This document shows, one piece after another, positions 11,753 through 38,381 of a DNA stretch of 64,000 nucleotides. Position numbers and translations under genes: made by a program. Source of the DNA: Bdellovibrio sp. (GTDB lineage: Bacteria > Bdellovibrionota > Bdellovibrionia > Bdellovibrionales > Bdellovibrionaceae); contig JACMRL010000022.1 of assembly GCA_014376435.1 (NCBI GenBank), positions 44,634 to 108,633 of the forward strand, read 5' to 3'. The first letter of the stretch is position 1. Every line of letters begins with the position of its first letter. A model generated the notes under the pieces. It worked only from the letters and a program-made list of their open reading frames with translations. It made no database searches and was not told the DNA's origin.

Positions 11753-11962
11753 TTCTAAAAGTTGTCAATTCTGGCATTTTGAAATTCTCAGATTGCAATT
11801 ATTAGGCTTTGGAGAGTTCTGAACAGTTTCAAGTGAGGGGTAAGCAGATTTGAATATCGGAACAGCAGCTAAGCTTTATCCAGCCGGCTTTTCCGGGGAT
11901 AATGCGCCGCACACAAGGACATTGATTTTGATTGGGTCTTCTCAGGGAAGTACACTACATCG

Positions 11963-14900
11963 ATGAGTTTTGTACATCTCCATAATCATTCTGAATACTC
12001 ACTACTCGAGGCGGCGGCTCGTATTAAAGGGATCGCGAAAAAAGCGGCTGAATATGAAATGCCGGCCGTAGCTTTAACGGATAACGGTAATATGTTTGGG
12101 GCGATTGAATTTTATTTCGCCGCTTTAGATAAAGGTGTGAAACCCATCATCGGGATGGACGCTTACATGGCGCCCGGATCCAGATTAGATAAAAAACAAG
12201 ATCCTAATCAAAGATTTTCTGAGAATGCTTTAGGGCCTCGTAGATTAGTACTCTTAGCGCAAAATTATCATGGTTACCAAAATCTTTGTAGATTGAGTAC
12301 GACGGGTTTCAAAGATGGCTTTTACTGGAAGCCGCGGATTGATGACGAAGTATTGAAAGAAAATAATTCTGACTTAATTTGTTTAACGGGCGGCTTTCGT
12401 GGAGAGCTAGCGGATACTTTTTTAAAAGAGGGTCCAGAAGCGGCACTGAAACGTTTACGTCAGTTAAAAGAAATTTTTAATGATCGTCTTTATTTAGAAA
12501 TGTGTCGTACTCGTCCCGAGTGGGCGCAGATTAATTCGTTTATCATCGAAGCTTCAAAAATTTTAAGTCTTCCCGTAGTTGCGACCAATGAAGTTCATTA
12601 TTTGACGGCGGATGACCAAATTGCGCAGGAAGTTTTAGTTTGTATTGGTACGAATAAAACTTTGGCCGATGATGCCCGTTATAAATTAGGAAGTTCTGAA
12701 TTTTATTTTAAATCTGCCACCCAGATGCAGAATTTATTTAAAGATGTGCCGGAAGCGATTTCAAATACTTTAGAAATTGCCGGTCGTTGTGACGTAAAAT
12801 TTAAATTAAAAGATTCTACCGGAAAAGCGATTTATCATTTACCGAGTTTTCCGACGACAGAAAATCGGACGGTATCGGAAGAGATTATTTTTAAAGCGAA
12901 CCTGGGTTTACAAAATCGTTTTCAAGATATGGTCGATCATCATATGGCCTTATCCGATGAGAAGAAAAAAGAATATCAAGATCGTTTAGATTACGAACTA
13001 GGTGTGATCGACCGTATGGGTTTTAACGGTTACTTTTTGATCGTCCAAGATTTTATTAATTGGGCTAAAGATAGTGATATTCCGGTGGGACCGGGGCGTG
13101 GATCTGGGGCTGGTTCATTGGTTGCTTACAGTTTACGAATTACTGATTTAGATCCGATTCCCTACTTTTTACTATTTGAGCGCTTCTTGAATCCTGAACG
13201 TGTGTCGATGCCCGATTTCGATATTGATTTCTGTCAAGATCGTCGTCAGGAAGTGATTCAGTACGTAACACAAAAGTACGGGGCTGAATCAGTTTCACAA
13301 ATTATCACTTACGGAAAATTACAATCTCGGGCCGCGATCAAAGATGTGGGCCGGGTACTCGCGATGTCTTTTGCCGATGTGGATGCCGTATCAAAACTAA
13401 TTCCTGATAAACTGGGTGTTACTTTAACAGAATCGTTAGAGATGGAACCGCGTATTCGCGAAATGATGGAAGCAAACCCTACCGTTGCCACATTATTGGA
13501 TCTAGCCTTAAAAGTGGAAGGCATGGTTCGTCACGCGGGAATTCATGCCGCGGGCGTTATTATTGCCGATGGAAGTTTAACGATGCACGCGCCGATGTAC
13601 CGCGGAGCTGCGGATGAAAATGTCGTGCAGTACGATATGAAGCATGCCGAGAAAATTGGTTTGATTAAATTCGACTTCTTGGGTTTAAAAACTTTAACTC
13701 ATATCAACAAAGCTTTAAAATTAGTTTTTAAAAATCGCGGGGTTAAAATATTAGAAAAAGATATTGATATCCACGATTCGAAAATCTACGAACTTTTATC
13801 TCGCGGCGATACGGCCGGAGTATTTCAGTTCGAGGGTGAAGGTATTTCCGATGCTACCCGTAAGATAAAACCCACCTCTTTCAATGATGTGACCGCGATT
13901 ACTTCGTTGTATCGTCCGGGACCGATGGCAAATATTCCTGAGTTTACAAAACGCAAACACGGGGAAAGCCCAGTCGAATATTTATTGCCCGATAGTAAAA
14001 AAATTTTAGAAGAGACTTACGGAATCATGGTTTACCAAGAACAAGTAATGGGGATTGCCGCCGTGATCGCCGGATACTCATTAGGTGAAGCCGATATGCT
14101 TCGTCGGGCGATGGGTAAAAAAATTAAAGCCGAGATGGATCAACATCGCGAGCGTTTTTTACAAGGGGCCAGCGAACGTGGGCACGATAAGAAAAAATCA
14201 GAGGAGCTATTTGAGTTGATGTTTAAATTCGCCGATTACGGATTTAATAAATCCCATGCGGCCGCGTACTCGGTTATTACCGCTCAGACGGCGTGGATTA
14301 AACATTATTACCCGGCTGAATTCTTTGCAGCACTTTTATCAACCGAGGTAGGTGATACCGATAAAGTTGTAAAATACGTTAAAGATGCGCAGAAACGCAA
14401 TTTAGTGGTTCGACCGCCGCATGTTAATTTTTCTGATTATTTATTTACGGTGAATGGCGACGAGATTTATTTTGGATTGGGCGCGATTAAAGGAGTAGGA
14501 GAGTCAGCCGTTCAAGCAATTCTTGAAGCCCGTGATAAAATGCCCGAGAAAAAATTTAATACGATTGAAGATTTTTTTAATAGCGTTGATTTACGTAAGG
14601 TAAATAAAAAAGTTTTAGAAAATTTGACAAAAGCGGGCGCTTTTGATGATTTCGGCTATCACCGTGCACAGTTATTTACGGGCTATCCGCAATTCTTAGA
14701 TCGCGCGGTAGAAACTCAAAAAGATCGTGAATCGGGTCAGGTTTCATTATTTGAGTTAAGCTCAAAAGAAGAAACAACCGTGGTATTACCTGATGCAAAA
14801 GTTTGGTCACGAATTCAATCTTTGGCATTTGAAAAAGAAGTTTTAGGTTTTTATCTAAGTGATCATCCGTTACGTGGTTTTGAAAATTTCTCGAAAGTTT

Positions 14901-27887: not shown

Positions 27888-27978
27888 GTAAGCGTCTAAA
27901 CTTTAGACACATTTAAATATTTTTCAAGATATAAATTTTCAGACTTTGGGTCTATTAATTTGTGCTATTTTAACCTCA

Positions 27979-28602
27979 ATGAAACGTGGCATTTTTAACT
28001 TTATTCTAATTTTATCAGCGTTTAGCTTTTTGACTCGTGCTGCTCATGCGGCCAAGCTAATTCCGGGAACCCAGTTTTGTAGTAATATGCAGCTAATCGA
28101 TACACCAAAAGAATGGCAAGATGGCCAAGTTCCCACTTCGTTTAAAGCGGATCATTTAGTGGTTTCAAAAGAGCGTAAGAAACTTTATTTATTAAGCGAA
28201 GGACGTCTTATTAAAGAATACAAAGTTTCATTCGGCTTTAATTACAAAGACGGTGCAAAAGATCGCAGTGGCGATGGCCGTACGCCTGAGGGTTTGTACG
28301 AGATAAACTTAAAAAAAGCGAAAAACCAAACGGCTTACCATATGGCCTTACAAGTTTCTTATCCCAATAAATTGGATTTAGATTACGCAGCCATGAAGGG
28401 TTGGGACGCCGGCAGCGATATTCTTATTCACGGTCTTCCGTCTCGTCCGGTGGATCATTTAATCCCAGACGTCATCAAGAACGTTCATGCGTATCGTGAT
28501 TGGACTCAAGGCTGTATGGCCGTTACCAATCAAGAGATCGAAGAGATCTTTGAACTGGTTGAAACCTCAGTTCCCCTCGAAATTTGTCCTTTGCCTAACT
28601 AG
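27979..28602 (+). CDS. L,D-transpeptidase family protein (YafK-like)
   Basis: ATG at 27979 gives the signal peptide MKRGIFNFILILSAFSFLTRAAHA. Catalytic region ILIHGLP...TQGCMAVTN. Confidence 0.7.
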   Translation: MKRGIFNFILILSAFSFLTRAAHAAKLIPGTQFCSNMQLIDTPKEWQDGQVPTSFKADHLVVSKERKKLYLLSEGRLIKEYKVSFGFNYKDGAKDRSGDGRTPEGLYEINLKKAKNQTAYHMALQVSYPNKLDLDYAAMKGWDAGSDILIHGLPSRPVDHLIPDVIKNVHAYRDWTQGCMAVTNQEIEEIFELVETSVPLEICPLPN

Positions 28603-28669: not shown

Positions 28670-29167
28670 ATGACAGAGACAGCTCTTAAAAAACCCACCG
28701 GCGTTTATTTTTTAGCAATTTTATTTTTGTTAGCACCTTTTGGAAATTTGCTGATCAGCTTTGCTGGTTCGGGAGTTTCAAATTGGCATGACATGAATGT
28801 GATGATTCCATTTTTGCAATCGGTACCGGCCGTAGACTGGTTGTGGCTGGGGCTTTTATTCATTACCGGCATTCTACTTTTTAGACCTCATAAATTAACT
28901 TGGTCATTAGCCTTAGTAACTTTATCTATTGTTTTAGCGATCAATGCATATCGCCTTTATCAAGCCGATACCAATTCAATCGACCCAACATTTTTAAAAG
29001 TTTTCTCCGTTTTAGCGATTGTTTGCACGCTAAGTATTTTAGTGATTGCGGCTTATTTTAGATTTCCATACCTAGACCGACGTGCCCAATGGATGTCGAA
29101 TCAGCCGAATGAAGACCGCAGAGGTTCTGATCGCGAAAAGAAATCAGAACGTCGAAAGGGAAATTAA
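28670..29167 (+). CDS. hypothetical membrane protein with a basic C-terminal tail
   Basis: 165 aa with 4 hydrophobic segments. Confidence 0.5.
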   Translation: MTETALKKPTGVYFLAILFLLAPFGNLLISFAGSGVSNWHDMNVMIPFLQSVPAVDWLWLGLLFITGILLFRPHKLTWSLALVTLSIVLAINAYRLYQADTNSIDPTFLKVFSVLAIVCTLSILVIAAYFRFPYLDRRAQWMSNQPNEDRRGSDREKKSERRKGN

Positions 29168-29297
29168 CTACACCTTGGTCTGTATCAAAACAAAACGTAA
29201 CATAATGATTTAAGTTTTAGTTAAAGTGTACCGAAAAGATAATGTGATAAATTTTGAGATAATGCTCAAGTAAAATCAGTACTTAAAGAGGTTTGAG

Positions 29298-31547
29298 ATG
29301 AAAATGAAGTCAAATAAAAATTCGCTACTAAAATGTCTAAGATGGACCGCTGCAAACTTGGCTTGGTCAGTGATGGCATTTTCGCCGGTAGCACTCGGTA
29401 AAGAAGCTGAGAATATTTCAAAGCAGAACCTAGAAAATTTTGTCAAAGAAACCGGATTAAATAAAAAAATCACTTTAGGTGAATACTGGCAAAAAGTTAA
29501 AGCAGATGCTCCGGCATTTTTGCGTAAAGATTTAGACGCATACATCGAAAAAAATAAGAATTTATTAATGCCGGAAGTAGTTGTTAAAACCGTTAAGGGC
29601 ACGGACGGAAAAATGGTTCCGGTTATGCAGATCACTGAAAACGGTAAAGTCAACACGGCGCAGTTTTTTGGAGAGAAAAATAAGTTTGTTAAATATAATA
29701 ATATCACTTTATCTGAACTTGATCTTCAGCGAGTAACTGATGTGGCGACGCGGATTGAGGCGAGCGATTACAATGTAAAGGTTGCGGCAGATGCTTATCG
29801 TACATCGGTGGGTGCGAAGCGCGATAAATTATCAAATTTTTCTCGTGATATGGCGCGCTTCAGCGGATTCACGCGCGTAACTCCGCAGTTGTGGAAAGCT
29901 CTTTCGATGAAAGAGCGTGCAGATATGATCATTACCATGCGTTTGATGAACCAATCAGCGCAAAAAGTATTAAGCCTTGAATCAGGTTCAATGAAGCCAG
30001 CGGCGCAAGGTGCTTCGATTGAAAACTACTATAAAGCTATTTTTGCTGATGCGAACGCTGCGACAAAAACTAAATCAGCGTACGTCGGAAGCAAAGCGGG
30101 TGAATCATGTGTGGTCGCAGGTTATATTGGTAGCTACCAAGAAATTTTAAATTACAAAAAACAAAAATCTTTATCTTGTTCGGTTGATAAGGGTATTGAA
30201 TCTTACAAAGAGCGCGCCGAATACGGCTTTATCACGCAAGCTAATCAAACATGCGTAAGTACAAAAAGTGTCGACCATGTTGCGTGTAACCCATTGATAT
30301 TTGGCTACCCAAAAGGCAGTCCAGCCTGCGTCGAGAAATACAAAGATGAATTTTCTAGAGCCACAACTTCTTGTGACGGGCAAAGTCGTTTATCAAGTTC
30401 AAAGTTAGAACAAATTCCGGGTAAAGATTATTCGAAATTAATGCCGCGCGAAAAACAGCTTGAAGCAATTAGAAATGATCAAATCGCTGAGAAATTTGAA
30501 TTGACCGAAAATTACTTAGCAGGTGTTTTAGCAGCAAAAAATAAATCAATGGCTGAAGCTTTAAAAGATGGAAAGTGGAGCCAAGGTTTAGAAGAAATGT
30601 TATCCAGTATCCAGGGCGGCTTCGAGGGCGAAATTGGAAAAGCGATCGCTATTTGCGAACAACGTATTAAAAATAATCCACAACAAGCAGATCCACAGCA
30701 AAAAGATGCGTGCGATCAATTACATCGTCGTTGGCTATTTACAGAGATGATTCAAATTAGATTGCGTAAGCAAGGTGGTTGTGATGCAAATGCAGTTTAC
30801 GTTGGTTCGGCTGATAAATTAGATTCAATTACTAAAAATCTTTGTAAATGTAATGATACGGGTAAATTAATTGCTCTAGGCGAAAAATGTGAATTAAGTG
30901 GTGGAGCAGTACCTCTTCCGGCGGTTCCGGCAGCGCCCGAAGTGTCGTGTGCAAGTCAATATGAAGGTGCCACGGGAATGAACGCAGACTGTCTGTGTAC
31001 GACAACGAATGCGTTACCCACCGAAGTTGTTCAATCAAAAAATACGAATATGGAAAATTATCCAGAGAATATAACGGCTTCGAGTGCGCCTAAATACACT
31101 TGTAGCAATTTTGATATTCCGTGGAAAGCAGTCGGGATTGGTGCGCTCGTAGCGCTTGGTCTTTGGTGGTTATTTAAAAAGAAAACAAATGATCAGCTGC
31201 TACAAGTGCAGCCACCACAAGTGCAGCAGCCAGCGGCTCCATTGTGTCTAGCGCCTAGAAATCCGGGTGCTCCTCCATGTACTTGTGGACCATGCGGCGC
31301 AGGTTTTGAAGTTTTAGATCCTAATGTTTGTCAGTGTGTGCCTAAACCGGTTATTCCCGGTTCAGTTCCCGTTCCTTGTTTAAACGGTTCGACGGCAGCC
31401 ACGGAAGCATTGTGTCCTAGATGTCCGGCGCCTTTTCAAGCTCAGCAGGTATCGATGCCCTCGACGCAGCGTCCGAATGGTTGCCCGAAGCCGAATGAAG
31501 GTAACAACGGGCAAAATAATAACGGTGGCAGCGGCGGCGTGAATTAA
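29298..31547 (+). CDS. large Cys-patterned exported protein with a single C-terminal TM helix and a Cys/Pro-rich tail (paralogue 1), unassigned family
   Basis: 749 aa. AAGAGG RBS, signal-like N-terminus, TM helix AVGIGALVALGLWWLF followed by KKK, and the tail CLAPRNPGAPPCTCGPCGAG...CQCVPKP...CPRCPAP. Clearly paralogous to the next gene. Confidence 0.7.
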   Translation: MKMKSNKNSLLKCLRWTAANLAWSVMAFSPVALGKEAENISKQNLENFVKETGLNKKITLGEYWQKVKADAPAFLRKDLDAYIEKNKNLLMPEVVVKTVKGTDGKMVPVMQITENGKVNTAQFFGEKNKFVKYNNITLSELDLQRVTDVATRIEASDYNVKVAADAYRTSVGAKRDKLSNFSRDMARFSGFTRVTPQLWKALSMKERADMIITMRLMNQSAQKVLSLESGSMKPAAQGASIENYYKAIFADANAATKTKSAYVGSKAGESCVVAGYIGSYQEILNYKKQKSLSCSVDKGIESYKERAEYGFITQANQTCVSTKSVDHVACNPLIFGYPKGSPACVEKYKDEFSRATTSCDGQSRLSSSKLEQIPGKDYSKLMPREKQLEAIRNDQIAEKFELTENYLAGVLAAKNKSMAEALKDGKWSQGLEEMLSSIQGGFEGEIGKAIAICEQRIKNNPQQADPQQKDACDQLHRRWLFTEMIQIRLRKQGGCDANAVYVGSADKLDSITKNLCKCNDTGKLIALGEKCELSGGAVPLPAVPAAPEVSCASQYEGATGMNADCLCTTTNALPTEVVQSKNTNMENYPENITASSAPKYTCSNFDIPWKAVGIGALVALGLWWLFKKKTNDQLLQVQPPQVQQPAAPLCLAPRNPGAPPCTCGPCGAGFEVLDPNVCQCVPKPVIPGSVPVPCLNGSTAATEALCPRCPAPFQAQQVSMPSTQRPNGCPKPNEGNNGQNNNGGSGGVN

Positions 31548-31565
31548 AATAACGAGGTTAGCACT

Positions 31566-33779
31566 ATGAAGTTAGATTTATTTAAATTTTCGAAATGGAT
31601 TTCTGCTTGGACAGCGGTCGCAAGTATGGTGTTTACACCGATCGCGATGGGTAAAGAGTCCGAAAAAATTTCGATGCAGATAATGCAAACGGTGTTAAAC
31701 GATACCGGTTTAAATAAATCGATGACCCTGGGCGCTTTTTACGAAAAAAATAAAGATTTACTTCCTCCGCGTTTGCAGAAAAAAATTGAACCGGTTGTTA
31801 TTAAATTTAAAAATCAAATCATGCCTACTTTCGAACTAGTAAGTCTTAAAGCCACGAATGGCCAAGTTGTGCCAACCCTCCGCATTTCGCAAAACGGCGA
31901 AAGTATGAATATGCAGTGGTTCGGCGAAGAAAACAGATACGTTAAATTTGGTAATACGAACTTAACCGAAATTGATATGATTAACTTCGATGATATGGTC
32001 GTACGTATTTTAGCTACGGATGAAAAACTTCGTAATCAAGTTACAGGCCCCATCAGTACAAAATCTAGAATAAATAAAAAATTTGCTCCGTACCCAGAAG
32101 TGAATACGCGTGAATGGGCTAGCATGTCTAATTTTGACAAAGCGGCTTACATCGTTAATTTAAGATTACTTTGGTTGGATGCAGAAAAAGTTTTAGCCGA
32201 AGTGAATGCTAAAAAAGGCAAAAAAACTTCGGGCAACTTTTTAGAGAAAAACGAACACTTTGTTAAACTGTTTTTCGGCGAAGAAGCCCGCGCGGCCGCC
32301 TTTGCAGACACTTGTATTGTCGCAGGTTACGTCGCTAAGTATGACAAAAAAACTCAAGTCTGCAGCCATCATTTAATTAATGAATTAGATGCGGCGACCG
32401 GCGCCCCTTCGCTTTATTCAAAAGCAAAACAACAGTGTACGGGCGGAAGCTTTTCATGTAACCCGGCTATTTTTGGTACCCCGAATGGTCAGGCAACCTG
32501 CGTAACCCCGGGAACGAATCAAGAATATCAAGAGGCCACTCTTTATAATGGTAAGTGTGAAAAACAAAGTCGTTTGCAGGCCGCGGCACCTAACTTTTTA
32601 AAAAGTGATGCAAAAGTAAAGGGTCGTTACGAATCTGAGAATGAAAAAATCTCAGATGAAATCAGAAGACAAAATGCCCAGACTGAACAAGCAAAAAATT
32701 CGTACGCGGCTACCGAAGAATATCTCATCGGTATTCTTAAGTTCAAAGGCCTCAATGTTTCAGACTTATCAGAAAAATCATTATTAGACGAAAAAGTAAT
32801 GGAACAAGTACTTGAAGCTAGAAATTCATTTAAAAATCAAATCGATATCGCCATGAAAGCCTGTGATGCAGAGTCGAAAGAATCACTGACTAATGATCGT
32901 CGACATGAAAAAAATTATTGGAAAGCTTGTGATAATTTAAAAAGTCGTTACTTGTTTGTTGAAGCTTATTTTGCTTCAAAATGTAAACAAGGTAAGTTAG
33001 ACGATGCCACGTTAAAATGTTCATGCGATGCACCGAAAGGTCCATCCGTTGTTCCGGGTGCTAAGTGTACCATTGAACCAACGGGGGCCGGCGCTGCTCC
33101 GTCCGCGGATATTTCTAAACCGGTGGTACCACGCGATTGTAAAAAGTATGGTTCAGTGCTTGGTATGGGGCCAGACTGTAAATGTGCGGGCGGCAGTGAT
33201 CCTTCTGAAACAGCTGCATCAACTGTTACTGGTCAAAAACAATTTGCTTGTAAAGATAAAGATGAAAAAGATCTTTCAGATAAAGACAAAGAAAAAGAAT
33301 GCACAGGAATTTTCTGTTCTTCTTTTTTAAAGAAATTGTTATGGGCAGGTGCTGCGATTGTCGGCGGAATTATTATTTACAAAGGTGTCCAGAAATATTT
33401 AGGTTTTAAAAAGCCAGAATTAAAATCACCGGGCGATGGTTGCCCAACGGGCGGAACGGCTCCGTGTGTGGCCGAATGTAAATCGCCCTATGCACGACAA
33501 GGTGATGGTACATGTAACGGTTGCGCGGGCTGCCCGGGACTTGGCCAGGTGGCTACGCCAGCGTCGGGTTGTAATTGCGTTACACAAACTGTTAACCCAG
33601 CAGTTACTTCGATAAAGTGTCCAGATAATACTTCTTGGAAACCAACTTTAGCAGAATGTCCTACGTACCCATGTGCAACCACGGTTCCACCAACTTCGTT
33701 TCAAAATCCACAGAATTGTCCGGCGCCAAGTAATGCAACTCCGACGTCAGGCACAGGTTCATCAGGTAAGGCTCGATGA
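31566..33779 (+). CDS. large Cys-patterned exported protein with a single C-terminal TM helix and a Cys/Pro-rich tail (paralogue 2), unassigned family
   Basis: 737 aa. Shares colinear blocks with paralogue 1, for example TGLNKSMTLG, CIVAGYVAKY, CNPAIFGTPNGQATCV, CEKQSRL and ACDNLKSRYLF. Confidence 0.7.
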   Translation: MKLDLFKFSKWISAWTAVASMVFTPIAMGKESEKISMQIMQTVLNDTGLNKSMTLGAFYEKNKDLLPPRLQKKIEPVVIKFKNQIMPTFELVSLKATNGQVVPTLRISQNGESMNMQWFGEENRYVKFGNTNLTEIDMINFDDMVVRILATDEKLRNQVTGPISTKSRINKKFAPYPEVNTREWASMSNFDKAAYIVNLRLLWLDAEKVLAEVNAKKGKKTSGNFLEKNEHFVKLFFGEEARAAAFADTCIVAGYVAKYDKKTQVCSHHLINELDAATGAPSLYSKAKQQCTGGSFSCNPAIFGTPNGQATCVTPGTNQEYQEATLYNGKCEKQSRLQAAAPNFLKSDAKVKGRYESENEKISDEIRRQNAQTEQAKNSYAATEEYLIGILKFKGLNVSDLSEKSLLDEKVMEQVLEARNSFKNQIDIAMKACDAESKESLTNDRRHEKNYWKACDNLKSRYLFVEAYFASKCKQGKLDDATLKCSCDAPKGPSVVPGAKCTIEPTGAGAAPSADISKPVVPRDCKKYGSVLGMGPDCKCAGGSDPSETAASTVTGQKQFACKDKDEKDLSDKDKEKECTGIFCSSFLKKLLWAGAAIVGGIIIYKGVQKYLGFKKPELKSPGDGCPTGGTAPCVAECKSPYARQGDGTCNGCAGCPGLGQVATPASGCNCVTQTVNPAVTSIKCPDNTSWKPTLAECPTYPCATTVPPTSFQNPQNCPAPSNATPTSGTGSSGKAR

Positions 33780-34333
33780 TCATTGATCAAACACCGGAGC
33801 CCCAAACAAAAAGGGCTCCACAAAAAACTATCATTTCTAAAGCTTTATTCCAGCGCTTCGACTTTGCCGAAGGCGCTAGCTTTCATCGTGGCCCGCAACG
33901 AAGATCGGGTCTTCAATTAGCTTTGTGGACGTGGTTATCGGCTGGGATTGATACTTTAGTTTTGATTTCGATGAGTTGCTTTTTTATGGTGATGTTTTCA
34001 TTTTTAATGCAGACGTCGGCAAAAAACGTATTAAATATTTTTATCAAACAGCCCGAGATAAAAACTTTATTTACCACTATTTTTTTAGTTAGCTTTTGGA
34101 TGTATCTGATCACGATGCGCGTTTTAATGAGTGCCTCCGTGGGAGAATGGACCTGTCAGTTAAGGTTGGGACAGCCAACCCAGCGCTTACACGTGAGTTA
34201 TATTTTGCGTGTGATGGCACGCACCTCATTGATTTTAATGACGGGTGTGGTGGTGCTTCCGCTTCTATCATTACTATTAAAACGTGATTTAGTCGGTGGC
34301 ATCACTGGAATTAAAATTTACTCGTTAAAATAA
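33776..34333 (+). CDS. RDD-family-like membrane protein
   Basis: ATGA overlap with the upstream paralogue. Has TM helices and the pattern SVGEWTCQLRLG...RDLVGGITGIKI, reminiscent of RDD domains. Confidence 0.45.
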   Translation: MIIDQTPEPQTKRAPQKTIISKALFQRFDFAEGASFHRGPQRRSGLQLALWTWLSAGIDTLVLISMSCFFMVMFSFLMQTSAKNVLNIFIKQPEIKTLFTTIFLVSFWMYLITMRVLMSASVGEWTCQLRLGQPTQRLHVSYILRVMARTSLILMTGVVVLPLLSLLLKRDLVGGITGIKIYSLK

Positions 34334-35440
34334 TTTTTCTAATAAGACGCAAGATTCAAAATGTGAAGTTTGCGGAAACTGATCAACAATCTTTATATCC
34401 TTAATTTGGTAACCGCTAGCTGCTAAAATTTTTAGATCTTGGGCCATGGACTCTGGAAAACACGAAATATAAATACAAGATTTTGCCTGCGTGCGGATGA
34501 CTTCGTGGGTGAATTTTTTTAAACCCGAACGCGGGGGATTTACCACGGCAAAATCGACGGGTTGCTGATTTGCGATCGATTTATTTTGAAAGTCGCCTAA
34601 ATTAATTTTTAGATTTTTACTTAAGCTACTTTTTTCCGCATTCAGCTTCAAATATTCTGTCGCCGATTCATCAGATTCAAAAACCTCTACATGGAAACCC
34701 TTGGATAAAAGTGGCAAGGTAAATTGTCCTAACCCCGGACCAAATTCAATCGCGGTGGTTTCAGAGCTTTTTGAATCTGTCCAACCCAATAAAATTTCGA
34801 TCATCTTTTTTGCCGAAAACCAAGAGGGTTGGGTAAAATCAGAGACTAAACCAAAAATAGGAATTTTTTGTAAGTCAGCCGTGTAACTTTCAAACCAAGC
34901 ATGTGGCTCTGGATCGGTGAGTCTTAAAATTCCGCCTACGATGGAAACTTTTTTACCTTTTTGTCCAACTTCAATATGAATATTTTTTTCTAACAAGTTA
35001 ATTAAAATACTTTTCTCAGCTAACAAATTTTTAATATCTAAATTAGAAAAATCTAACCAGCATCCGCGTTGTCCGCTGGGACCAATCCGCAAACGGGCCG
35101 AGCCTTTTTTAATCGGAAAATGAACCTGACGAAATTGGCTAAAAAAACTTTGTAGTTCAGGGCTAAGCTGTAAACACTGTTTGATATCGATTAAGTTTTT
35201 AGCCTGATCATAAAAACCCATCTGTTGAATTTGTTCATTCTGGATTGTAAAATCAAGACGATGTCTTAGTCCGTATTCTCCGCAGCTGATGAATTCAATG
35301 GCGGGATGCGAGATGTTTTCAGCGTCTAAAAGGCCTGACAGAGTGGCAATTTTTAATTTTTTTTGCTCTGCATAGCTTAAATTCCAATGTTTGCATCCTT
35401 GGCAGGCGGGGAAGTATGTACAGCTCATATTCGTTGACAT
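34325..35440 (-). CDS. SAM-dependent RNA (uracil-5)-methyltransferase, RlmD/TrmA family
   Basis: N-terminal Fe-S Cys cluster CTYFPACQGC, SAM motif IEFGPGLG, VVNPPRSG and the catalytic Cys context YISCFP. Confidence 0.7.
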   Translation of the reverse strand: MSTNMSCTYFPACQGCKHWNLSYAEQKKLKIATLSGLLDAENISHPAIEFISCGEYGLRHRLDFTIQNEQIQQMGFYDQAKNLIDIKQCLQLSPELQSFFSQFRQVHFPIKKGSARLRIGPSGQRGCWLDFSNLDIKNLLAEKSILINLLEKNIHIEVGQKGKKVSIVGGILRLTDPEPHAWFESYTADLQKIPIFGLVSDFTQPSWFSAKKMIEILLGWTDSKSSETTAIEFGPGLGQFTLPLLSKGFHVEVFESDESATEYLKLNAEKSSLSKNLKINLGDFQNKSIANQQPVDFAVVNPPRSGLKKFTHEVIRTQAKSCIYISCFPESMAQDLKILAASGYQIKDIKIVDQFPQTSHFESCVLLEKLF

Positions 35441-35468: not shown

Positions 35469-38381
35469 ATGAAAAACTTAAAGATATTTATAGCGCTTTT
35501 TGCGACCGCGGTCACGATTAAATCATCAACGGCTTTAACGGCTGATCCGGTTCTTAAGAACTTTATCGATCAAAAAAATACGCTGATTGCCGACGCTCGG
35601 CAAATTACTTTTGTTGGACCCCGCTCGGGCGAAGGCTATTTCAGTGCCGACGGTAAAAAAATGATTTTTCAATCCGAGCGCGAGCCCGGGAATCCTTTTT
35701 ATCAAATGTATATTTTAGATTTAAAATCTGGCCAAACTTCTCGCGTCTCCACGGGGCAAGGTAAAACCACTTGTGGTTGGATCAAGCCTGATATGAAAAA
35801 AGTAATGTGGTCATCAACGCACTTAGATTCAAAAACAAAAGAAAAAATCAAAGGCGAATACGCCGCGCGCGCAAAACCCGTCAAGGGCCGTTACTCGTGG
35901 AGTTTCGATGATCAATTTGATATTTTTGAATCTGATCTGCAGGGTAAAAACGTTAAACGTTTAACTAAAGAACTTGGTTACGATGCAGAGGGTTCTTATT
36001 CTCCGGATGGTCAATGGATTGCTTTTGCTTCCAATCGCTCGTTATACAGTGATCAGTTTACGGAAGATGATAAAAAAGTTTTACAACGTGATCCATCTTA
36101 CGCGATGGAAATTTACATCATGAAAGCCGATGGCACGCAAGTTAAGCGTTTAACAAATTCTTTGGGCTATGACGGCGGACCTTTTTTTAGCGCGGACGGA
36201 AAAAAAATAACGTGGAGACGTTTTAATGCGGATGGCTCAAAAGCTGAAATCTACACAATGAATGTGGATGGTTCTGAACAAAAGCAAATCACCAGTCTTG
36301 GTTCAATGTCGTGGGCGCCATTTTTTCATCCGTCGGGTAAATATATAATTTTTGGCTCATCCGTTTTAGGTTATTCAAACTTTGAATTATTCATCGTGGA
36401 TTCTGAAGGAAAGCAGAAACCCGTTCGCGTGACTTTTGCAGATGGCTTCGACGGATTGGCAAGTTTTTCGCCCGATGGCCAAACTTTAACTTGGTCACAC
36501 CGTAATGAAAAAGGTGATAGCCAAATCTATTTAGCCTCTTGGAATCATGATGAGGCCTTAAAGCTTTTAAATTTATCTGATGCAATTTCGCCCGAGCAAT
36601 TAAGGCTGGGTTCCGATATCAATGAAAAAGACGTGCGTAATATCGTAAGCTATTTAGCCTCTGAAAAAATGCAAGGACGCGCGACAGGTTCTGCGGAAGA
36701 AAAAATCTACAGCACAGAAATCGCAAGGTTATTTAAATCTTTTGGATTAAGACCGGCATTTGGCGATGATTTCATCCAAGCCTTCGAATTTACTTCGGGA
36801 GTTTCAGCTACCGAAAACAATACGGCCGAATTAAAAGGTCGAACTCAAACTAAGTTGAATCGCGGTGATGATTACCAAGTACTTTCCTATTCTAAAGTGG
36901 GAGATTTTCAAGCTTTACCGATTGCTTTTGCCGGATACGGAATCGTTGCGCCCGCAACCGATAAGTTACCCGCATACGATTCGTTTAAAGAATTAGATGT
37001 AAAAGGAAAATGGGTTTTGGTATTGGATCATATTCCAGAACTACCGTCGCAAGAAATGAAACATAATCTTTTAAGTTATTCTCGTCCCCAGCATAAAATT
37101 ACCGTTGCTAAAAACCGCGGTGCCGCGGGCGTTATTTTCATTTCAGAAACATCTTTAAAAGATTTAAAGTTCGAAGGCAGTCTTTCAGAAAGCACTGTAC
37201 CGGTTATAAAAATTTCATCAAAAGTGATCGATCAAATATTAAAAAGTGCAGAATTAACCAACGGAATTAAATCTTACGATGATTTAAAAACACAATTTGA
37301 AACTTCAAAACAAACGGTGGGTTTTACTTTCAATTCAGAGTATTTAAGTGCACGCATTGATTTAAATTTTGAAAAATCAGTCGGGCGTAACGTGATTGCG
37401 GTTTTAGAGCCAACTAAAAAAGCTAAAGCCTCAAAAGCCATTTTGATTGGCGCTCACGGTGATCATTTAGGTTTGGGCGAGCGTACGGGTTCATCACTGG
37501 CGCGCGCTAAAGAAAAATCGAAAATTCATTTTGGCGCTGATGATAATGCTTCGGGCGTAGCGGGCGTGATCGAGCTTTCGAAGTATTTTTCGGAAAAACG
37601 GAATGAAATTAAAAAACCGATGTACTTTGCCGTTTGGTCCGGTGAAGAAGTGGGTGTTTTAGGTTCAAGCCACTTTGTCAAAGTTTGGAAAGAGCAAAAA
37701 AAATCTGAATTTAGCCAAAGCTTCGAAGCGGGTTTAAATATGGATATGATTGGCAGATTACGTGATCAGTTACAAGTGCAAGGCGTGGCTTCCGCGAAGC
37801 AATGGGTGGGTCTAAGTGAAGAAGTTGCTTTAATCTCGGGGGTTCCCTTAGCCGTCACTGCAGATCCTTATTTGCCGACCGATGCGATGAGTGTGTACGT
37901 AGCCGGTGTGCCATCAATTTCATTTTTTACGGGCTCGCACGAAGAATATCACACGCCACGTGATACGGCTGAAACTTTAAATTACCCGGGTTTAGTTCGT
38001 AGTATTGGTGTGGTAAAAACTTTTGCCGAAAAGCTTGTGACAGTTTCGACAACCGTAGTGAAATACGAAAAAGTTGAAGGTAACTCTGGTCAAAGAATGG
38101 AAGGCCGTAGCTTTCGTATTTACCTAGGCACGATTCCCGATTACAGCCAAGAAGGTGTTAAAGGAGTTCGTGTTTCAGGGGCTTCTAAAAATTCTCCGGC
38201 TGAAAAAGCCGGGGTCAAAACGGGTGATATTATTATTGAGTTTGCTAAAACAAAAATCGAAAATTTATACGATTATGTTTATACATTACAGGCCGTTAAA
38301 CCAAATATTTTAACCAAGATGAGCGTCATGAGAGACGGAAAAAAAATCGATTTAGATATTCTTCCGTTATTAAAAGAGTAA
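35469..38381 (+). CDS. multidomain secreted peptidase: TolB-like beta-propeller + M28 aminopeptidase + PDZ
   Basis: 970 aa with a signal peptide. PD40 repeats (YSPDGQWIAFASNR, FFSADGKKITW, FSPDGQTLTW), M28 motifs (HGDHLG, GADDNASGV, SGEEVGVLGS) and a C-terminal PDZ (SPAEKAGVKTGDIIIEF). Confidence 0.75.
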   Translation: MKNLKIFIALFATAVTIKSSTALTADPVLKNFIDQKNTLIADARQITFVGPRSGEGYFSADGKKMIFQSEREPGNPFYQMYILDLKSGQTSRVSTGQGKTTCGWIKPDMKKVMWSSTHLDSKTKEKIKGEYAARAKPVKGRYSWSFDDQFDIFESDLQGKNVKRLTKELGYDAEGSYSPDGQWIAFASNRSLYSDQFTEDDKKVLQRDPSYAMEIYIMKADGTQVKRLTNSLGYDGGPFFSADGKKITWRRFNADGSKAEIYTMNVDGSEQKQITSLGSMSWAPFFHPSGKYIIFGSSVLGYSNFELFIVDSEGKQKPVRVTFADGFDGLASFSPDGQTLTWSHRNEKGDSQIYLASWNHDEALKLLNLSDAISPEQLRLGSDINEKDVRNIVSYLASEKMQGRATGSAEEKIYSTEIARLFKSFGLRPAFGDDFIQAFEFTSGVSATENNTAELKGRTQTKLNRGDDYQVLSYSKVGDFQALPIAFAGYGIVAPATDKLPAYDSFKELDVKGKWVLVLDHIPELPSQEMKHNLLSYSRPQHKITVAKNRGAAGVIFISETSLKDLKFEGSLSESTVPVIKISSKVIDQILKSAELTNGIKSYDDLKTQFETSKQTVGFTFNSEYLSARIDLNFEKSVGRNVIAVLEPTKKAKASKAILIGAHGDHLGLGERTGSSLARAKEKSKIHFGADDNASGVAGVIELSKYFSEKRNEIKKPMYFAVWSGEEVGVLGSSHFVKVWKEQKKSEFSQSFEAGLNMDMIGRLRDQLQVQGVASAKQWVGLSEEVALISGVPLAVTADPYLPTDAMSVYVAGVPSISFFTGSHEEYHTPRDTAETLNYPGLVRSIGVVKTFAEKLVTVSTTVVKYEKVEGNSGQRMEGRSFRIYLGTIPDYSQEGVKGVRVSGASKNSPAEKAGVKTGDIIIEFAKTKIENLYDYVYTLQAVKPNILTKMSVMRDGKKIDLDILPLLKE

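Follow-up and report, generated by a model that had tools for sequence, protein, structure and literature searches.

We analysed a 64,000-nucleotide (nt) stretch of contig JACMRL010000022.1 from Bdellovibrio sp. (assembly GCA_014376435.1, positions 44,634 to 108,633), hereafter termed the window, and concentrated on four co-directional genes, S, A, B and C (Table 1). A and B encode two large membrane-anchored proteins that match no described family, and are preceded by S, the gene for a small membrane protein, and followed by C, the gene for a divergent member of the RDD family. The A and B genes are separated by 18 nt and each is preceded by a GAGG-type ribosome-binding site; the ATG start of C and the stop codon of B overlap as ATGA. 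BLASTP aligns the A and B proteins colinearly from end to end (28% identity, E=2e-64), which confirms them as full-length tandem paralogues. A preliminary description of this locus, made from the letters alone, had given the open reading frame (ORF) coordinates, the 18-nt spacer and the ATGA overlap exactly, and had claimed colinear paralogy on the strength of several matching blocks, every one of which lies in the alignment.

Table 1. Features of the cassette, its two large proteins and its neighbours (positions in the window unless a locus is named; aa, amino acids; TM, transmembrane).
Feature	Position	Strand	Description
YkuD L,D-transpeptidase gene	27946..28602	+	Pfam E=1.2e-16; between MscS and S; context, not core
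S	28670..29167	+	165 aa; small 4-TM membrane protein; first gene of the co-directional cassette
Gene A	29298..31547	+	749 aa; listed ORF, coordinates as first described
A, residues 1-34	29298..29399	+	Signal-peptide-like: basic n-region, weak h-region, A-x-G before KEAE (heuristic)
A, residues 35-606	29400..31115	+	Predicted periplasmic ectodomain, 16 Cys
A, residues 607-626	31116..31175	+	Single TM helix (IPWKAVGIGALVALGLWWLF), then KKK; helix 609-634 in the AlphaFold model
A, residues 627-749	31176..31544	+	Tail: Pro/Gln spacer, 10 Cys in conserved modules, Gly/Asn-rich end
Gene B	31566..33779	+	737 aa; divergent paralogue of A; starts 18 nt after A
B, residues 1-29		+	Signal (heuristic); the ectodomain after it has 18 Cys
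B, residues 586-605	33321..33380	+	TM helix, followed by Lys-rich residues
B, residues 606-737	33381..33776	+	Tail: 12 Cys, invariant in 20 orthologues
Gene C	33776..34333	+	185 aa; divergent RDD-family polytopic membrane protein
TrmA-like tRNA U5-methyltransferase gene	34325..35440	-	Assigned through Pfam matches of orthologues
970-aa protein gene	35469..38381	+	Orthologues have Tricorn-N/PD40 repeats, an M28 peptidase domain and PDZ (Pfam)
S orthologues (examples)	L053:7203-7937; L055:7153-7887
Small gene between B and C	L003 ~11941-12225	-	Equivalents in L007, L013, L014, L015, L017, L019, L022 and L037

Both proteins have a signal-like N-terminus and a single TM helix followed by Lys residues and a Cys/Pro-rich tail, as first described, and these features proved to be shared by nearly all full-length members of the family. 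The N-terminus is unusually conserved throughout the family (W.AA.L...TM.FSPVA.GKEAE), and in A and B an A-x-G precedes the KEAE/KESE. The ectodomain of A consists of an N-terminal alpha/beta domain, a Cys core (motifs CVVAGY, CNP.IFG, CD..SRL and ACDQLHRRW), three long helices and variable CxC knots just before the membrane. Ectodomains of the family usually contain 16-22 Cys, seven of which are invariant (C271, C294, C330, C344, C359, C453 and C472 in A numbering), and the number is even in 59 of 61 proteins. The predicted periplasmic domain of each protein is ~570 aa long and is held together by some eight conserved pairs of Cys. An AlphaFold2 model of A, computed with a 69-sequence alignment, has a predicted local distance difference test (pLDDT) score of about 90 over most of residues 35-500. 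Residues invariant over both tiers of the family (the second is introduced below) are limited to Cys, Gly, Pro, Asn, Gln, Ala and Arg; in the alignments of the two tiers, not one His, Ser, Asp or Glu is invariant. This lack of an invariant catalytic-type residue points to a binding or scaffolding role rather than to an enzyme.

Each protein has one strong hydrophobic segment, the sole segment with a Kyte-Doolittle score of at least 1.4 outside the N-terminus. This helix is Gly-rich across the family (NWLPWVLGGLGILALIAIF) and a basic cluster follows it directly: over 61 proteins, the net charge of the adjoining 12 residues is -0.26 before the helix and +2.8 after it. A signal, one further TM helix and a positive C-terminal flank, all of them assigned by heuristics, are the marks of a type I bitopic protein.

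All full-length members continue beyond the basic cluster into a conserved tail of about 60-190 aa, which is rich in Pro, Thr, Gly and Asn and almost uncharged. The tails of A and B (123 and 132 aa) contain 8-9% Cys and 14-18% Pro, and a doubled loop, C.DG[ST]......CP, is common to A- and B-type tails. The preliminary description had named poor conservation of the tail as a potential refutation of its reading. The tail of A is 36-49% identical to those of its orthologues (Cys region and C-terminus) and that of B 40-42%, against 45-51% for the ectodomain, and the 12 Cys of the B tail are invariant. The tail is no low-complexity filler and is about as well conserved as the ectodomain. In the model of A, residues ~660-730 reach a pLDDT of 82-90; the B tail modelled alone by AlphaFold gave 55, too poor for a fold search. 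The tails of two further members, P0052 and P0085, contain tandem 12-residue repeats (CP.G[ST]TG.[FY]PNC) and 20 Cys each, an expansion indicating that the tail evolves by module duplication.

The two proteins had been described as belonging to no characterised family, and sequence, profile and Foldseek searches all left them without placement. Neither A nor B matches a Pfam or NCBIfam family. Sequence and profile searches of the PDB returned no match for A, B or the A/B family profile (a nanobody match at E=0.03 was dismissed as chance), and Foldseek found no match with E<0.001 for the model of A in the PDB or BFVD. The PADLOC anti-phage defence models gave only a chance-level match for A (E=0.01, 12.9 bits) and none for S, B or C. 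When the tails and the pre-membrane knots were searched in isolation against Pfam, nothing usable was found even at E<=10, the sole match of the tails being a sub-threshold 10-residue CXCXC repeat.

Homologues are nonetheless numerous. A collection of 5.8 billion sequences yielded 60 through A and 26 through B, all unnamed or 'hypothetical', and the named sources were Bdellovibrio, Pseudobdellovibrio or Bdellovibrionota. A hidden Markov model (HMM) of 69 members, searched against 1.84 billion representatives of clusters at 50% identity, found 409 clusters at E<1e-3 and 199 at E<1e-30. With about 400 homologue clusters sharing it, the architecture is far beyond chance. A pattern-limited scan of GTDB species genomes located 47 loci, all Bdellovibrio-like, in metagenome-assembled genomes and in the complete genomes of Pseudobdellovibrio sp. 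HCB154 and Bdellovibrio sp. qaytius. Thus, as far as these searches reach, the A/B family appears to lie outside every described family and to be restricted to Bdellovibrionota, with the caveat that uncharacterised lineage-specific families are common.

A second tier of the family comprises proteins of 600-700 aa that agree with the first in N-terminus, ectodomain and helix and have short tails rich in Pro and Thr. These tails contain 0-2 Cys and end in an invariant C-terminal motif, ...EGG........GGVR, the last residue of which is invariant in the single-copy proteins. This tier includes CAE79904.1/Q6MLF3 of B. bacteriovorus HD100, Bdt_2021 of strain Tiberius and Bb109J_c1860 of strain 109J, all annotated as 'hypothetical'. 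The literature searched contains no mention of Q6MLF3, CAE79904, Bdt_2021 or Bb109J_c1860, and does not mention Bd2058-Bd2069 in any relevant way. B. bacteriovorus has one copy only, which we call X. A-type proteins retain the ancestral C-terminal motif in the form EGGSGNNCP.G.CSGGVP, although in A of the window the EGG...GGV motif is degenerate (as NEGNNGQNNNGGSGGVN); the B-type tail, with its 12 invariant Cys, differs from the A-type. In a neighbour-joining tree of the ectodomains, drawn without bootstrap, the A and B clades group together and apart from the single-copy clades. This grouping and the single copy in B. bacteriovorus indicate that A and B arose by duplication of X within Pseudobdellovibrionaceae, with an expansion of Cys modules in the tails. 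A dispersed paralogue of 765 aa also exists (L056:8001-10298); it comes from the same metagenome sample as L055 and is encoded without S or RDD.

Of the 52 loci screened, each one whose flanks reach far enough has S, A, B and C on one strand, with S upstream of A; the set lies between the genes for MscS and a TrmA-like methyltransferase, both of which are on the other strand. B. bacteriovorus and one distant lineage have X as a single copy, arranged as S(PilZ)-X-RDD; in the distant lineage the full order is MscS, YkuD, S(PilZ), X, RDD and methyltransferase; the YkuD gene precedes S in only some genomes. The comparison shows that the ancestral unit is a three-gene, co-directional cassette of S (4 TM segments and PilZ), X and a divergent RDD protein. 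The earlier proposal of a two-paralogue operon as the unit therefore needs to be recast: the A/B pair is real, but it is a lineage-specific duplication, and the upstream S belongs to the unit too. The proposed RDD neighbourhood largely survives, with the RDD gene directly downstream in nearly all genomes but missing from one lineage. Translational coupling is found in the window, and in 13 loci C overlaps B or is no more than 6 nt away from it, but 10 loci have an intervening gene. Coupling of B to the RDD gene is thus real in the window and not a family-wide rule.

S is the best conserved gene of the cassette (56-84% identity). A C-terminal PilZ domain (PF07238) is present in 9 of 21 S orthologues (best E=5e-7), among them those of B. 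bacteriovorus and of the distant single-copy lineage. The S protein of the window is a short form that ends just after RFPYLDRR..W and has an Arg-rich end with an RRxxxR-like motif; S has lost PilZ in the lineage of the window and in several others.

Protein C of the window scores 16.5 bits against the Pfam RDD model (PF06271), below the gathering threshold of 24.1 (E=0.011). All 20 of its orthologues match the model at E<=0.1 (best 7e-7), and several carry a precomputed 'RDD (weak)' annotation. Its hydrophobic segments span residues of about 46-82, 94-122 and 142-177. Among the 20 orthologues R43 is nearly invariant and D59, R115 and D171 are invariant; C is thus polytopic, with a conserved Arg before and an Asp within the first helix and a second Asp, which would correspond to the canonical R/D/D positions of RDD-type proteins. 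To our knowledge, and by its Pfam description, the RDD family has no established function, and membership of C in it therefore explains little; the likeness to this family concerns C only, not A or B. C counts as a divergent RDD member and S, in many genomes but not in the present one, as a PilZ-type membrane protein; A and B fall in no described family.

On this basis we favour, tentatively and at somewhat less than an even chance, a model in which A and B are type I inner-membrane paralogues that form a scaffold or receptor complex with S and the RDD protein and have zinc-stabilised docking tails. By the topology heuristics, each protein has a Sec-type signal, a periplasmic domain, one stop-transfer helix and the Pro/Cys-rich C-terminal tail. 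In the periplasm, the ectodomains of A and B would assemble into a heteromeric scaffold or receptor without enzymatic activity, and the inner membrane would hold both proteins alongside S and the RDD protein. The tails would face the cytoplasm and serve for docking, with zinc, shared within one chain or between chains, stabilising their Cys pairs. Where S keeps PilZ, it could pass the action of cyclic di-GMP (c-di-GMP) on to the complex. The output may be envelope or cell-wall organisation or may be related to predation.

Several observations weigh against this model. As judged from the searches above, no homology supports a function for A and B, and the assignments of signal peptide and topology are heuristics only. 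S of the window matches neither PilZ nor any other Pfam family at E<=0.01. In 10 of 25 loci, B and C are separated by a gap of ~415-490 nt that holds a small opposite-strand gene. Further objections come from the tail. Of 61 proteins, 60 have an even number of Cys there, which is the bias that the exported ectodomain shows too, and in 20 of 61 the number is 2 mod 4, and so not a multiple of four; His is almost absent. Gains and losses of Cys affect neighbouring pairs: NCP.G.CSGG was lost more than once, several A-type proteins, A of the window included, lack both Cys of the C-x4-5-C pair in the C-terminal motif, and the HD100 tail has only a single C-x10-C loop. The parity and the pairwise loss give the tail Cys the look of disulfide bonding.

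These Cys statistics would be explained if the tail were extracytoplasmic and disulfide-bonded, with the whole protein exported as a disulfide-rich structure of the surface or the periplasm. The helix would in that event be no conventional stop-transfer sequence; it could be translocated and later insert into a membrane or oligomerise, perhaps at the outer membrane or in the envelope of the prey. The near-uncharged Pro/Thr/Gly/Asn composition of the tail, which resembles secreted linker and knot modules, and the Gly-rich helix (LGGLGILAL) fit this alternative, as does P0033, in which a tail-type 6-Cys module lies N-terminal of the TM helix (residues 599-629; 20.5 bits, independent E-value 2e-5). 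We nevertheless regard an exported tail as unlikely. A signal, one helix of 17-20 residues and a Lys/Arg cluster make a textbook type I protein, the charge bias around the helix is strong across the family, and zinc-binding two-Cys knuckles (CxC, CxxC or Cx4C) would give even counts too. An HMM of 102 tail modules was significant in only 1 of 216 ectodomains, that of P0033, with no significant copy in the other 215; the idea of the same Cys module on both sides of the helix was dropped as a rule for the family, and the one case is too little to overturn the topology prediction. A more ambitious variant, in which the S-X-RDD cassette encodes a predator-specific trans-envelope machine with exported, disulfide-bonded A and B, whose helix is more than a plain inner-membrane anchor and which perhaps touch or enter the prey envelope under c-di-GMP control through PilZ, strikes us as quite improbable.

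Taken strictly, the preliminary description proposed something else: cytoplasmic, metallothionein- or zinc-ribbon-like tails in a translationally coupled A-B-RDD module for sensing or adhesion. The predicted cytoplasmic location agrees with this, as do an invariant Cys framework with CxC, CxxC and Cx4C spacings, in which the usual 12 Cys could form three Cys4 sites, and the ATGA or near-zero spacing of B and C in the 13 loci. However, no zinc-ribbon, metallothionein or other metal-binding family matches the tails at any threshold, and no known metal-binding family or paired CxxC...CxxC knuckles were found in the tails of A and B (Pfam and NCBIfam; tails to E<=10). There is one CxxC per tail, the other Cys occurring as CxC, as Cx3-5C or singly, and counts of 2, 6, 10 and 18 exist; many tails have 12-22. 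A of the window lost one knuckle yet kept its presumed partner. The tails in Bdellovibrio proper have 0-2 Cys, and metal binding thus cannot be the core function of the family. The RDD coupling is broken in the 10 loci described above and one lineage is without RDD; nothing in our analysis favours either sensing or adhesion. We regard this strict version as rather improbable.

Of the earlier claim of a cytoplasmic metal-binding tail, the location is supported by the topology heuristics, whereas the metal binding is met by the absence of a zinc family match and by disulfide-like Cys statistics. Disulfide-like Cys on the predicted cytoplasmic side leave the metal-binding idea neither proven nor refuted, and the pairwise behaviour can also stem from two-Cys zinc knuckles, perhaps shared between chains. 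We consider it quite probable that the tail is cytoplasmic; if it is, structural or inter-chain zinc has roughly an even chance. Purely by analogy, such an arrangement recalls the zinc clasp of CD4/CD8 with Lck and the zinc hook of Rad50, in which short Cys pairs on separate chains jointly bind zinc. The CD4/CD8-Lck clasp is alike in that Cys pairs (CxC and CxxC) lie on the cytoplasmic tail of a type I protein. Clasp and hook differ from the present tails in having no sequence relationship with them, and the high Cys numbers of many tails here also set them apart. Inter-chain zinc would reconcile two-Cys units with a cytoplasmic tail and with the existence of an A/B pair.

Alternatively, the gene order could be no more than inherited synteny, with A and B acting alone, for example as structural periplasmic or cell-wall proteins, and having no tie to S or RDD. 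The flanking MscS, TrmA-like methyltransferase and M28/PDZ protease genes are syntenic as well, so that the entire 10-kb neighbourhood is conserved and not the cassette alone; because of this, gene order by itself is weak evidence of functional coupling. At L057:8001-10127, X stands alone between MscS and the methyltransferase, with a Cys-free tail and no S or RDD. The dispersed paralogue adjoins genes for an SLT lytic transglycosylase, GlmS, GlmU and an M14 peptidase, all related to peptidoglycan, and YkuD is a frequent neighbour of the cassette. These cell-wall neighbours (YkuD; SLT, GlmS and GlmU at the paralogue) are only hints of an envelope or peptidoglycan connection. Speaking for a functional tie, S, X and C run in one direction with little space between them, their outer neighbours lie on the opposite strand, and S-X-C is kept across Bdellovibrionaceae, Pseudobdellovibrionaceae and the distant lineage while YkuD and others vary. 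We thus judge it rather unlikely that the order reflects synteny alone.

The scaffold or receptor complex that we favour can be set beside known envelope systems. In the BcsA-BcsB cellulose synthase, a PilZ c-di-GMP receptor is part of a membrane complex. The cassette is alike in that, in many genomes, a polytopic PilZ protein (S) is encoded beside a large, signal-bearing periplasmic protein anchored by a C-terminal TM helix. It is unlike in that S has 4 TM segments only and no glycosyltransferase or other catalytic domain, and PilZ is missing from S of the window; BcsB has no sequence or fold similarity to A and B and lacks a Cys-rich tail.

A type IV secretion system relationship was also considered, since a profile of the single-copy relatives matched DotF/IcmG (E=6e-5) and VirB10 (E=0.06) in the PDB. 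VirB10, DotF/IcmG and TonB resemble A and B in having a single TM helix and then a Pro-rich spacer. However, the VirB10 and DotF matches are restricted to the TM helix and a low-complexity Pro/Thr stretch, the folded domains being dissimilar, and in VirB10, DotF and TonB the basic cluster precedes the helix (N-terminus in, C-terminus out), so that the charge orientation is opposite to that of A and B. We therefore judge the similarity to be compositional. A VirB10/DotF-type relationship was rejected, as neither Foldseek of A nor the A/B profile finds folded-domain homology.

Finally, the end of the ectodomain recalls C-terminal sorting signals of the PEP-CTERM, MYXO-CTERM, LPXTG and GlyGly-CTERM kinds, with a Cys-bearing Y.CEG.NWLPW just before the helix and a basic cluster after it. 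In proteins with such signals nothing comes after the cluster, whereas here the tail follows. A reading as a MYXO-CTERM/PEP-CTERM-like sorting signal was rejected because of the conserved tail after the helix; no NCBIfam sorting-signal model matches.

The remaining features of the locus can be stated briefly. The gene between B and C, absent from the window, is conserved and encodes a small secreted protein of about 85-94 aa, with a signal peptide, the pattern KDYQVTG.V.EVTDSKI.VDKKGEKFEI...KVTVYYSMTA.EIE.K and a Lys-rich end. Two ORFs, 29276..29707 (-), 143 aa, and 33028..33330 (+), 100 aa, lie wholly inside A and B; they are unsupported as genes and probably spurious. The synteny of the TrmA-like gene and the gene for the 970-aa protein is kept in all related genomes. 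Promoter and terminator scans of the locus were uninformative, with sites no commoner than in shuffled sequence, and the terminator scan found none between the cassette genes. A predicted L,D-transpeptidase gene of B. bacteriovorus, bd2061, is reported to peak 20 min into predation (bioRxiv 10.1101/2025.09.24.678257); it may or may not be the YkuD neighbour of the cassette and carries no weight in our reading.

The family described here is conserved and syntenic in the genomes of Bdellovibrio-like predators, the model strain HD100 included, and usually occupies a single locus; it carries neither annotation nor Pfam domain and lacks a structural relative. Through a partnership with PilZ-bearing S, it would be a concrete candidate output for some of the many PilZ proteins of B. 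bacteriovorus, most of which are unassigned. The tail is a puzzle in itself, in that its Cys are statistically disulfide-like and yet lie on the predicted side of the membrane where disulfides should not form. Behind it would lie either a new cytoplasmic module of the zinc-clasp type, carried by a type I protein of bacteria, or a topology out of the ordinary.

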